Source: an uncultured archaeon
Lineage (GTDB): Archaea; Aenigmatarchaeota; Aenigmatarchaeia; CAZXUR01
Length of the DNA stretch: 64,000 nt
NCBI GenBank assembly: GCA_964644245.1
Contig: CAZXUR010000002.1
Span: 10,555 to 74,554, forward strand
Reading direction: 5' to 3'
Position 1 is the stretch's first letter, and the number at the start of each line of letters is the position of its first letter. Positions 47,811-52,710 of the stretch are shown here, one piece after another. The notes below the pieces were generated by a model, which made no database searches, was not told where the DNA came from, and was given only the letters and a program-made list of their open reading frames with translations. The position numbers were made by a program, and so were the translations under genes.

Positions 47811-49007
47811 ATGCAGGAATCACTGGACCAAATGTTCGACTCTTATATTAATCAGGAGTCGTTGTTCAAGAACAAGGTGGTGTTTGCCAATTATTATAAA
47901 CCGGATGACATCATGCACCGGGGTGAAGAGATAAACCAGTTGGGTTCCATACTGGCTCCTAGCCTCAAGGGGAATATTCCCAGCAACATACTTATATTCG
48001 GGACCGTGGGAACCGGTAAGACGTTGGTGGTGAGGCACGTGCTCGACAAGCTCTCCAAAGCTGCTGCCAAGGCCAAGAGTCCTATAAACATGATTTACAT
48101 CAACTGTAAGATGAAGAAGGTATCTGACACAGAGTACAGGCTGGTTTCACAAATACTGAGAAAGATGGGACTCGACGTCCCTGACACCGGACTTCCAACC
48201 AACGTTCTCTACCAAAGACTGTTCGAGAAACTGGAAGAAACCAAAGTTACCCTGCTCATACTTGACGAAATAGATGCGTTGGTGGAAAAGGTGGGTGATG
48301 GTATATTGTACAACCTGACTAGAATAAACAGTGACCTGAAAAAAGGGAAGGTGGGAATGATAGGGATAACCAACGACCTGTCTTTCACTGACCTGCTCGA
48401 CCCTCGTGTGAAGTCCTCACTCTCAGAGGAAGAACTGATATTTTCTCCATACAATGCTTTGCACCTGAAGAACATACTCAAGGAAAGGGTCAAGGAAGGC
48501 ATGGAAAAAGGAGCTTTGAGTGATGCGGTGATAACCAAGTGTGCGGCCTTGGCTGCGCAGGAGCACGGTGATGCGCGCAGAGCCCTGGACCTCCTCAGGG
48601 TTGCGGGTGAAATAGCTGAGAGGAAGAATGAGAAGAAAATACTGGAGAGGCATGTCGACATGGCAGAGACCAAACTGGATTTGGACAGGGTCACGGAAAC
48701 GGTCAAGACCCAGCCCAAACAATCTCAGGCAGTCCTCCTCTCCATAATAGAGATTTCCAAGAAAGACAAGGAAATCACCACAGGCGACATATTTGAGGTT
48801 TATAAAAACACTTGTGAAAAGAATGGTCTCAAGGTTTTGACTCAGAGAAGGGTGTCGGACCTCATCTCAGAGTTGGATATGTTGGGAATCATAACCACCA
48901 CCGTAGTCTCCAGGGGGAGGTACGGAAGGTCCAGAGAGATAAAACTGGCAATCGGAGAGACAGCACTCAACAAGTTGAAGGATATATTATACAAGAATTT
49001 TGAGTAG
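47811..49007 (+). CDS. cdc6: Orc1/Cdc6 replication initiator
   Basis: 398 aa. Walker A FGTVGTGKT, Walker B LILDEIDAL, sensor region GDARRALDLLR, and a C-terminal winged helix. Confidence 0.9.
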   Translation: MQESLDQMFDSYINQESLFKNKVVFANYYKPDDIMHRGEEINQLGSILAPSLKGNIPSNILIFGTVGTGKTLVVRHVLDKLSKAAAKAKSPINMIYINCKMKKVSDTEYRLVSQILRKMGLDVPDTGLPTNVLYQRLFEKLEETKVTLLILDEIDALVEKVGDGILYNLTRINSDLKKGKVGMIGITNDLSFTDLLDPRVKSSLSEEELIFSPYNALHLKNILKERVKEGMEKGALSDAVITKCAALAAQEHGDARRALDLLRVAGEIAERKNEKKILERHVDMAETKLDLDRVTETVKTQPKQSQAVLLSIIEISKKDKEITTGDIFEVYKNTCEKNGLKVLTQRRVSDLISELDMLGIITTTVVSRGRYGRSREIKLAIGETALNKLKDILYKNFE

Positions 49008-49012
49008 ATAAG

Positions 49013-50029: not shown

Positions 50030-52710
50030 AGGTTCAGATTTTAGACGTCGATTATGTCATGACCAACCAAAAACCAGTGGTAAGAATCTTTGGCAGAACC
50101 GACGAGGGCAAGTCTGTCTGCCTGTTTCATGAAGGATTCTATCCTTACTTCTACGTCAAATGTGACCAGAAGAAGTCTGAGTTTGAAAAACTGCTAGAAA
50201 AGTTCAACGGTGAGGTCAGGGAAGTAAAGAAAGTCAATAAAAAAATTCCCCTTGGCTACAAGGAGAAGCCCGACGAACTCTTCAAGGTGGTGAACACCAC
50301 CCCGTCTAAGGTGCCTGAGATCAGGAATTTCCTGTTGGACAAAGGCATGGACGTGTACGAGGCAGACATTTTCTTCAAGTACAGGTTCATGGTGGACCAT
50401 AACATAAAGGGAATGGAATGGGCGGAAGTGAAGACCACCAAGACTTTCACAAAGACCGTGAGCATACCCAGTTACAAAATAAAAAACATAAAGCCCATAG
50501 ACAAAACAGGGAACTCTGAGTTGAGGTATTTATCTTTTGATATAGAGTGTGTTTCAAAAAACCCGGACCGCCTGCCTGACGCCAAGACCGACCCGGTCAT
50601 AATCATATCACTGGCCTTCAACAGAAATTACCATGGAAAGAAAACCATGGTCCTGTCGCTCAAGAATTCAGAGGGGTGCAAAGGGTTCAACGGAGAGGAA
50701 AAGATGTTGAAGGAGTTCCTGGAAATAATAAAGGAGTACGATCCGGACATAATCACCGGTTACAACGTGAATAACTTCGACCTCCCGTACATATTCGAGC
50801 GTCTCAAGAAGTACAACGTACCAGCCACACTGGGCAGGTGTGAAAAGAAACAGGCTTACGCGAAAAAGTTCGGTTATTCAACCACAGTCAACATCCCAGG
50901 AAGGGCGGTCATGGACAGTTACCAGATAATAAAGTCAGACCCCTACATGAAGTTCAAGCGATACACACTGAACAACGTTGCCAAGAACATGCTGGACGAC
51001 GAGAAGAAGGACGTGAAGCCGAAGGAAATGGCCAAACTATGGAATGGCTCCAAGAAGGACGTCAAGAAGTTCATAGACTATGGGAGGAAGGACGCGGTCC
51101 TGGCCCTCAGACTCATAATCGAGAAGAATCTTCTGGACAAGTACTTCGAGCTTTCAAAGGTATCCGGTCTGGTCCTGCAGGACGCAGTGGGCGGTCAGGC
51201 CATAAGGGTGGAAACATGTTTCCTCCATAAATTCAGGGAACGCGGGTATGTAATGCCGGCAAAACCCAATGGGAGTGAGATAAGCAGGAGAAGGAAGGAG
51301 AGGGAAGAAATCGGACTCAAGGGAGGTTTCGTACTTTCACCCGAAAAGGGGCTGCACTCCAAGGGGTGCATATTGGTCCTGGACTTCAAGAGTCTGTACC
51401 CTTCCATCATGATTACTCACAATATATGTCCCAGTGCTTTGCTGAAGGACGGAAAAAAAGAGAAGAAACACAAGGGCTCCAAGTCCCCTTCCGGCTCCAG
51501 GTTCGTAGACACTTCAGTTCACCGCGGACTGCTCCCGGAGGTAGTTAATGAAATACTCGATGCCAGGGCAAAGGCAAAGAAGGAGATGTACGCGGCAAAA
51601 ACAAAGGAAAAGAGAAAATTAATGGACGCAAAACAATACGCGCTTAAGATAATGGCCAATTCGTTTTACGGTTACACCGGATATTTCAGGGCCAGACTTT
51701 ACATGGTCGAGGTCGCGGCAGCAATAACATCCTTCGGGAGGGAACTCATAAAGAAGAGCAAAAAACTCTGTGAGGAGGAGTTTGATGCAAAGGTCATTTA
51801 TGGTGACACGGATTCCATATTCGTCAAAGTCAAGACCAATGACTTGGACAAGGCAGCCAAGCTGGGAGAAGACATCTGTGAAAGGATCAACAAGACCCTT
51901 TCAGGAGTCCTGGAACTGGAGTTCGAGAAGATATACCGTACCTTCCTCATACTCACCAAGAAACGCTACGCAGCCTGGAAGTTTGAAAAACAGAACGGGA
52001 AGTGGGAGAACTCCATAGACATGAAAGGTATAGAAACGGTGAGGAGGGACTGGTGTGATTTGGTCAGCTCAACCATGAAAGATGTTATTTCCATGATACT
52101 CAAGGAAGGGGACGTGAAGAAGGCGATGTCAAAAGTGAAAGACATTGTAGAAAAACTGAAGTCAGGAGAAGTTGAATTGGAAAAACTGGCAATAGTAAAG
52201 GGAATAACTAAGAAGCCTTCGGAGTACGATGGTACACTCCCCCACATAGAACTGGCCAAAAAGATGAGCAGGAGGGATGCCACTACAGCTCCGGTTGCCG
52301 GAGAAAGGATTGCTTTTGTGATAATAAAAGGCAATCAAATGTTGTCCAAGAGAGCTGAGTCTCCCGAATACGTAAAGGAAAACTCTCTGGAAATAGACCC
52401 GGACTACTATATCCATTCCCAACTCCTCCCCCCACTGGAGAGAATATTCTCATCACTGGGAGTTAACAAGACAGAATTACTGGGACTGGGAAGACAGATG
52501 AATTTCTTTGAGGTAGTGAACGGTTCAAAGAGGAAGCTTAACCACAACGTTGCGGTAAAACACAGCCAGACCCTGGAAGGATTTGAGGAATTCACATGCA
52601 AGTCTTGTAAGAAGACGTTGAGGAGGCCTCCACTCACCGGTAAGTGCTCCTGTGGGGGCAACATAGAAATAGTCTTTCAGGGTTCCAGTTCCGACCGCTG
52701 CAAGGTTTAG
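50026..52710 (+). CDS. polB: Family B DNA polymerase with a C-terminal C4 zinc ribbon
   Basis: 894 aa. Exo I FDIEC. Pol motifs SLYPSI and YGDTDS. C-terminal [21 protein letters not shown]. ATGA overlap with the DP1-like gene. No intein is present. Confidence 0.9.
   Translation: [894 protein letters not shown]

Follow-up and report, generated by a model that had tools for sequence, protein, structure and literature searches.

A replication locus of three genes was analysed in a 64,000-nucleotide stretch of DNA from an uncultured archaeon (GenBank assembly GCA_964644245.1, contig CAZXUR010000002.1, positions 10,555–74,554), which is called the window below. Head to tail on the + strand, the genes encode the replication initiator Orc1/Cdc6 (orc1; 398 aa; 47,811–49,007), a short protein related to DP1, which forms the small subunit in DNA polymerase D (PolD) (DP1-like; 338 aa; 49,013–50,029), and a family-B DNA polymerase (PolB; 894 aa; 50,026–52,710). 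The first-pass annotation, made from the sequence alone, had placed all three open reading frames (ORFs) exactly. It was also correct about the junctions: the orc1 stop codon TAG is followed by the five nucleotides ataag and then by the ATG of the DP1-like gene, whose own stop overlaps the PolB start in an ATGA (50,026–50,029). This overlap is particular to the present genome, as the gap between the two genes has a median of ~62 nt in the family. The initiator was identified by Pfam (Cdc6_C, Cdc6_lid, and AAA_22) and NCBIfam (TIGR02928, 408 bits).

A probable replication origin (47,595–47,770) lies upstream of orc1. Two full origin recognition boxes (ORBs), with the sequence TTCC-N4-GAAAT-N3-GGGG, stand in inverted orientation (47,595–47,614, − strand; 47,692–47,711, + strand) on either side of an AT-rich stretch (47,615–47,691), and they are followed by two mini-ORBs (47,723–47,734, −; 47,755–47,766, +) and by a TATA-like box ~25 nt before the orc1 ATG. 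Inverted ORB repeats around an AT-rich element beside orc1/cdc6 are the features by which an archaeal oriC is recognized. The same box was present upstream of orc1 in two related loci (L001 and L002), and 28 of 55 related loci carried an ORB box no more than 400 nt upstream of orc1, compared with a background of 0.049 per kb. Because of these boxes, the locus reads oriC–orc1–DP1-like–PolB. The linkage of oriC, cdc6, and DP1 is ancestral and widespread in Euryarchaeota, and in Pyrococcus abyssi the oriC, Cdc6, DP1, and DP2 are found together (PMC2643942). The gene of a 236-aa helix-turn-helix protein of the HTH_3 (XRE) type (46,883–47,593, +) stops a single base short of the left ORB box; in relatives its place is occupied by mevalonate-pathway genes (HMG-CoA synthase, thiolase, and OB-ChsH2).

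The identity of the DP1-like protein is not evident from its database annotation. Pfam labels it only as Metallophos_2 (E 6e-15), and it matches the NCBIfam equivalog model of DP1 (NF003118) at 112 bits, far below the cut-off of 445. It belongs to a family of ~50 cluster-level relatives of 319–389 aa, every named one of which comes from metagenome-assembled genomes of Candidatus Aenigmarchaeota/Aenigmatarchaeota and is usually annotated as a metallophosphoesterase. When used as a phmmer query against the PDB, however, the protein matched DP1 chains only (6knb_A, E 8.5e-11; 5ihe, 6hmf, and 6t8h). Its AlphaFold2 model, built from a 53-sequence alignment (pLDDT 91.7, pTM 0.84), is composed of an N-terminal helical segment (aa 1–35), an OB fold (~aa 100–155), and a degenerate phosphoesterase domain (aa 170–338). 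In a Foldseek search of the PDB, the best match of this model was the DP1 of P. abyssi (E 4e-22, TM 0.70), and all of the top 48 matches were DP1 or the B-subunits of Pol delta, epsilon, zeta, or alpha, with p50, Dpb2/POLE2, Pol31, and POLA2 at E-values of 1e-17 to 1e-12. A generic phosphodiesterase appeared first at rank 49 and spanned half of the model. This ranking makes the protein, by its predicted fold, a genuine homologue of DP1 and the B-subunits, with an OB plus phosphoesterase architecture. Grouping with unrelated metallophosphoesterases, an outcome that would have spoken against the first-pass annotation, was not seen, and the fold together with the homology to DP1 rules out the database label in that sense.

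Judged by its sequence, however, the protein is not a canonical DP1. Three loops of ~20, 26, and 16 residues present in canonical DP1 are missing. The conserved N-terminal helical segment aligns with the N-termini of canonical DP1s, while a profile of the segment searched against the PDB retrieved no DP1N structure, only a spurious 'KLLTPEA' repeat of CagY. In Thermococcus, DP1N is a Gins51-binding domain that tethers the polymerase to GINS/CMG (PMC9023282). By analogy, the segment retained here may still allow the DP1-like protein to tether a polymerase to GINS/CMG.

The most marked departure from canonical DP1 is in the active site. The motifs DMHLD (aa 176), GDIGD (204), PGEADG (226), and HGHTH (298) are all present, as had been reported, and in the alignment PGEADG (49,688–49,705, +) occupies, in degenerate form, the place of the catalytic GNH(D/E), with Glu in place of Asn and Ala in place of His. 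The earlier suspicion that the nuclease site may be impaired agrees with a tally of the eight active-site positions over 53 family members. The histidine of GNH(D/E) has survived in a single member and is lacking in 52; the asparagine is still there in 18 and has given way to Glu in 20. Some 20 members retain seven of the eight metal ligands (DxH, GD, N, H, and GHxH) and the protein of the window retains six, but ~10 members are down to between none and three; these are still paired with ribbon-bearing PolBs, an example being locus L005, where none of the eight ligands is left and the PolB has kept its ribbon. It is for these replacements and losses that the protein cannot be called a canonical DP1. 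The residues that never differ between canonical DP1 and members of the short family have no catalytic role (E120, D121, P157, L262, R275, P293, and D294). It seems to be the fold and surface of the protein, rather than catalysis, that selection acts on.

A residual enzymatic role would be the alternative: the protein could be a metal-dependent nuclease or phosphoesterase in which Glu stands in for Asn, providing PolB with a second editing or primer-processing activity. The ligands that survive in the window's protein and in the ~20 least altered members are compatible with this, as is the Pfam score for Metallophos_2. We nevertheless consider it unlikely, as the GNH histidine is gone from virtually the whole family and a DP1 changed at H451 is proofreading-deficient according to the title of PDB entry 6hmf, ligands have been lost piecemeal in members that remain partnered with PolB, PolB has an intact exonuclease of its own, and the Aenigma DP1 clade has been classed as inactive (PMC7544198). 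Because the catalytic histidine and the three loops have been lost, the most likely role of the DP1-like protein is that of a non-catalytic scaffold, comparable to a eukaryotic B-subunit.

The PolB itself keeps its exonuclease and polymerase motifs intact. It scored 411 bits against PF00136 and 145 bits against PF03104, and the motifs FDIEC, SLYPSI, and YGDTDS named in the first-pass annotation are present, their key residues being invariant, along with the rest of Exo I–III and motifs A–C, in 30 relatives. The family as a whole comprises more than 120 cluster representatives at ~50% identity. Among solved structures, the body of the protein was closest to human Pol delta (394 bits), marginally ahead of KOD PolB of the Thermococcales (390 bits), and it shares with Pol delta the cysteines of FDIEC and HNIC. 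Between the polymerase core and the C-terminal zinc ribbon lies QMNFFEVV (aa 824–831; 52,495–52,518, +), a conserved Q-x-x-h-x-x-h-h segment and a candidate PCNA-interacting protein (PIP) box; its family consensus is GRQ-x-(S/N)-(L/F)-x-(D/E)-h-h, with Q824, G820, and G822 invariant. We take this to be the position at which canonical archaeal PolBs, such as those of the Thermococcales, end in their PCNA-binding PIP box, and by this analogy the segment may be a PIP box that has become internal.

Converging on PolB from downstream is a free-standing gene for a 205-aa homing-endonuclease-like protein of the LAGLIDADG_3 family (52,707–53,324, −), and the stops of the two genes overlap by 3 nt. Many relatives carry LAGLIDADG inteins within PolB, which brings these proteins to 1300–1400 aa. 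The downstream gene was considered as a remnant of such an intein and this was rejected, as it has no similarity to the intein-bearing relative P0071.

The C-terminal end of PolB connects it with PolD. The C-x2-C-x12-C-x-C motif reported by the first-pass annotation is indeed present (C858, C861, C874, and C876; 52,591–52,683, +), and the last ~70 residues are conserved across the more than 120 cluster representatives. When a profile of 25 such tails was compared with all PDB sequences, DP2, the large subunit of PolD, was the only significant match (6knb_B, residues 1127–1162, E 1.6e-8; 6hms_B and 6t8h_B, E 4.4e-8). In addition, RRPPLTGKC of the window's PolB is identical in the DP2 of Thermococcus kodakarensis, and NCBIfam gave weak DP2 matches for PolB. 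In the AlphaFold2 model the tail forms a beta-ribbon (pLDDT 85–88) consisting of strands only, and its two best Foldseek matches were P. abyssi DP2, over 31 residues with an rmsd (root-mean-square deviation) of 0.9 Å and 52% identity. The assignment to DP2 rests on the sequence profile and not on the fold match. As the comparison proposed by the first-pass annotation turned out, the ribbon is, at the level of sequence, a homologue of Zn-III, the module at the C-terminus of DP2 that binds DP1; it would derive from this module, and it is the presumed docking site of the DP1-like protein.

An exhaustive HMMER search with the tail against 1.84 billion representatives gave 172 hits that fell into three classes. 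In the first, the full tail ends proteins of PolB size. In the second, the ribbon alone occurs ~85 residues before the end of DP2s of 1100–1640 aa confirmed by Pfam, in one of which the ribbon region is also matched by PF22912, the Pol epsilon zinc finger. The third consists of shorter, divergent PolBs of 779–796 aa that end in the ribbon. The ribbon was present in every one of the 78 PolBs whose 3′ end is intact; it closes with C-x-C in 58 and with C-x2-C in 20. The DP2-type C-x2-C ending is also that of the PolB of locus L006.

The order of the genes was then compared across relatives. When one genome per species was scanned with a PolB alignment, 313 relatives were found, and the best 80 loci were analysed, nearly all of them labelled Candidatus Aenigmatarchaeota and including two closed chromosomes (833 and 875 kb). 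A scan of genome contigs with the single DP1-like protein as the query had returned no relatives, whereas the PolB alignment did. Seventy-six of the 80 loci were informative for neighbours. The expectation that the zinc tail would go together with a DP1 neighbour held for most of them, as the DP1-like gene immediately precedes PolB on the same strand in 59 and lies within 6 kb in 70, but not for the small virus-like group described below. Of the 52 loci in which the DP1-like gene adjoins PolB and enough sequence is available upstream of it, 50 have orc1 directly upstream. In six others (L017, L030, L037, L059, L067, and L076) the order is the same with a spacer of 650–1000 nt between DP1-like and PolB, and in five the orc1–DP1-like pair lies nearby in another orientation. 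Look-ups of exact proteins in the loci of seven relatives gave DP1-like followed by PolB in six; the region upstream was visible in six, and five of these have orc1 immediately before the pair, very divergent pairs included. One canonical DP1, found among the distant matches, is followed by DP2. With dozens of species-level genomes repeating the order of the three genes at 40–55% protein identity, this is far beyond chance. The spacers of the six genomes would have room for a small inserted gene.

Since the DP1-like and PolB genes are split in a minority of the Aenigmatarchaeota genomes, the partnership of the two proteins does not need adjacency. One locus (L004, 6001–7065) has an orc1–DP1-like pair with no PolB after it. 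The pairing of orc1 with DP1-like is in fact more constant than that of DP1-like with PolB, and it is intact where PolB has moved (L021, L036, L045, L081, L082, and L004). The order might then reflect nothing but the ancient cdc6–DP1 linkage, with the DP1-like protein working at the origin with Orc1/Cdc6, for instance in initiation, without involvement of PolB, and the ribbon serving to bind DNA or PCNA. An interaction between Cdc6 and DP1 has been proposed by Berthon et al. (PMC2643942), and the ribbon-tailed PolBs of the virus-like group lack a DP1 neighbour. The ribbon, however, is specifically the module by which DP2 contacts DP1. We also know of no function for DP1 in the absence of a catalytic partner, which counts against a partnership with Orc1/Cdc6 alone. 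Moreover, DP1–PolB binding has been observed in this lineage by yeast two-hybrid (PMC12680538), and roles with Orc1/Cdc6 and with PolB are not mutually exclusive. We therefore regard this explanation of the gene order as very improbable.

DP2 was not found in the window, as the first-pass annotation had noted; its sole ORF of at least 1000 aa encodes an alanyl-tRNA synthetase, and all others are of 555 aa or less. Nor was DP2 found in the 80 related loci of 6–15 kb beside the DP1-like genes, and among the homologues labelled Aenigmarchaeota there was no second, full-length DP1. If a real PolD with full DP1 and DP2 were encoded elsewhere in the genome, PolB could be a repair polymerase or the passenger of a mobile element. 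Such an element has been suggested as the source of the PolB group to which this protein belongs (PMC7544198), a LAGLIDADG gene abuts the 3′ end of PolB, inteins are present in its relatives, and divergent ribbon-tailed PolBs occur on virus-like contigs. Against it are the stable chromosomal synteny beside oriC and housekeeping genes in 80 species-level genomes at ~50% identity, the invariance of the catalytic residues of PolB, the absence of a second full-length DP1 just mentioned, and the reported absence of DP2 from the lineage (PMC7544198; PMC12680538). A passenger or repair polymerase is accordingly the least probable of the explanations considered here.

The system is already known, having been described in 2020 (PMC7544198) and tested for DP1 binding in 2025 (PMC12680538), and the present locus is an instance of it. 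Kazlauskas et al. (2020; PMC7544198) defined the PolB group B6, within which 'B6-aenigma1' has one C-terminal Zn motif most similar to Zn-III of DP2; they reported that DP2 is absent in most Aenigmarchaeota, named the inactive DP1 clade 'Aenigma_GB_GCA_002789635-like', and proposed that PolB replaced DP2 in a manner mirroring the origin of the eukaryotic pairs of catalytic subunit and B-subunit. According to PMC12680538 (2025), only Aenigmatarchaeota and Baldrarchaeia keep DP1 without DP2, and in both AlphaFold3 and yeast two-hybrid indicated that DP1 binds PolB-DP2CTD, a PolB with DP2's C-terminal domain (CTD); 'B6-aenigma2' was reassigned to Baldrarchaeia in the same work. The window's locus agrees with B6-aenigma1/PolB-DP2CTD plus DP1 in its lineage, as given by the labels of its relatives, in its PolB of ~890 aa with a single motif like Zn-III of DP2, in its short DP1 with a degenerate phosphoesterase site, and in the lack of DP2. 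It differs in nothing essential, the ATGA overlap being local to this genome. The order oriC–orc1–DP1–PolB is not mentioned in the main texts of either study or in the consulted supplements of PMC7544198. Three minor points may be unreported: this synteny next to the origin, the graded erosion of the phosphoesterase site, and the virus-like ribbon PolBs without a DP1 neighbour.

The PolB–DP1 holoenzyme proposed by the first-pass annotation is supported by the DP1/B-subunit fold, the DP2-derived ribbon, and the synteny, and for its physical side by the binding evidence from the lineage (PMC12680538). With the homologies, predicted fold, motif states, synteny, and ORB boxes observed here, and with the DP1–PolB binding and lineage-wide loss of DP2 taken from the literature, the locus probably encodes the origin-side two-subunit chromosomal replicase of DPANN archaea of the Aenigmatarchaeota type, made up of a PolB with a DP2 ribbon and a non-catalytic DP1-like protein. 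In such an enzyme PolB would be the catalytic subunit, combining the polymerase with its own 3′–5′ exonuclease proofreading. Its ribbon of ~30 residues would be a copy of the Zn module of DP2 that holds DP1 in PolD. The shrunken DP1-like protein, having kept the OB plus phosphoesterase fold and the surface residues common to real DP1, would dock on this ribbon and connect the polymerase to other parts of the replisome. We infer that it serves as a scaffold, that there are links to PCNA and GINS, and that DP2 was replaced in place. The polymerase body of DP2 would have been lost while the order oriC–cdc6–DP1–(DP2 slot) was kept and the genes remained co-transcribed; because the gene order is conserved, this may have come about by recombination in place, in which the body of DP2 gave way to a PolB and the Zn module was retained.

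Several observations weigh against this interpretation. The Foldseek match of the ribbon to DP2 is not significant (E 0.07), the domain being very small. The tail of PolB has a single Cys4 module and not two metal modules, the helical part of ~110 residues that DP2 has after its Zn module (6knb_B, 1162–1324) is missing, and the tail of the Aenigmatarchaeota has been termed a shorter, 'degenerate DP2CTD' with a different predicted structure (PMC12680538). With six of its eight ligands in place, the window's DP1-like protein could conceivably retain some activity. Direct adjacency of DP1-like and PolB is missing in 17 of the 76 informative loci, and six of them (L032, L034, L041, L049, L058, and L060) have no DP1-like gene within 6 kb. 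Finally, the ribbon PolBs of the virus-like contigs (L009–L011) have no adjacent DP1 homologue.

Compared with PolD of P. abyssi (PDB 6hms and 6t8h), the locus has in common the small subunit's OB plus phosphoesterase fold (Foldseek values as given above), the near-identical sequence of the Zn ribbon of the large subunit, and the position beside cdc6/oriC. The catalytic part, however, is the double-psi beta-barrel of DP2 in PolD and a family-B polymerase here. The ~110 residues after the ribbon (PolB ends 18 residues after C876), the GNH histidine, and the three small-subunit loops are lacking in the window, and the last Cys pair is C-x-C instead of the C-x2-C of DP2.

With the eukaryotic polymerases alpha, delta, and epsilon the locus shares a family-B catalytic subunit bearing a C-terminal metal module and a presumably dead B-subunit homologous to DP1, and the body of PolB scores best, if marginally, against Pol delta. 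While the eukaryotic enzymes have the modules CysA and CysB, the PolB of the window has one Zn module, no helical bundle, and no Fe-S cluster; its B-subunit is much smaller, and many members of that family keep most of their metal ligands. Unlike for the eukaryotic polymerases, no further accessory subunits are known to us for the PolB/DP1-like system of Aenigmatarchaeota. The PolB3-DP2CTD of Baldrarchaeia is likewise a PolB fused to a CTD derived from DP2 in a lineage that has lost DP2 and kept DP1, with binding observed by yeast two-hybrid (PMC12680538), but it has a full-length CTD with two motifs, resembling those of DP2 and of eukaryotes, where the window's PolB has a short version with one ribbon.

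The third class of the HMMER search is of a different character. The divergent PolBs P0211, P0234, and P0272 (and also P0217), of 779–796 aa, end in a DP2-type ribbon, e.g., FICVNCKKTYRRPPLLGQCDCGG. The genes of the first three (L009, 2317–4707; L010, 807–3158; and L011, 2242–4584, respectively) are on short, tightly packed contigs coded on a single strand, together with ThyX or ThyA, a uracil-DNA glycosylase (UDG), a Cas4-like nuclease, and many small unannotated ORFs; these contigs look viral or mobile. A hidden DP1 homologue upstream of the PolBs was considered and discarded, as one of the two candidate ORFs encodes a thymidylate synthase and the second reached an hhalign probability of 0.1% against the DP1-like profile. 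A scan of IMG/VR found no relatives of P0211. Because a PolB of this kind could use the DP1 of its host, these proteins do not overturn the two-subunit replicase proposed above. As a speculative idea that we hold to be rather doubtful, the DP2-type ribbon may be a portable DP1-docking tag on viral or mobile PolBs, serving to hijack the DP1 or DP1-like subunit of the host or marking a mobile source of the Aenigmarchaeal replicase; in the second case, a virus-like PolB would have been recruited into a cdc6–DP1–DP2 operon in place of DP2.

Other genes of the window lie farther from the locus. A 366-aa Toprim_4 protein resembling archaeal DnaG (44,759–45,859, −) is encoded 2 kb upstream of the origin, and since L001 and L006 likewise have a similar Toprim gene close to the locus, this region may form a small replication island. 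Next to it is a 177-aa ORF with no Pfam match (45,890–46,423, −). At 5 kb from orc1 is the gene of a 351-aa AAA_22 ATPase (41,674–42,729, −) with a C-terminal winged helix (Penicillinase_R-like) and a faint ORC-CDC6-like match, which may be a second, divergent protein of the Orc1/Cdc6 type or a STAND-like protein. Downstream, a 269-aa protein (55,680–56,489, +) joins an ATP-cone to the catalytic domain of an Mrr-type restriction endonuclease and has an AF1548-like domain at its C-terminus, which is an uncommon architecture of a nucleotide-sensing nuclease. A scan for sigma-70 promoters and intrinsic terminators was uninformative on this archaeal DNA.

The numbers added here to the known system are the presence of the ribbon in 78 of 78 PolBs, the gene order in 50 of 52 fully visible loci, and a gradual decay of the phosphoesterase site during which non-catalytic residues have stayed fixed. 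The universality of the ribbon, the order, and the graded decay support a structural role of the small subunit and the idea that DP2 was replaced where it stood. The virus-like PolBs, for their part, bear on the mobile-element origin proposed for polymerases of the B6 type. The system would be a living example of the presumed step to the eukaryotic replicative polymerases, in which a PolB gains the docking module of DP2 and an inactivated DP1 becomes its B-subunit.

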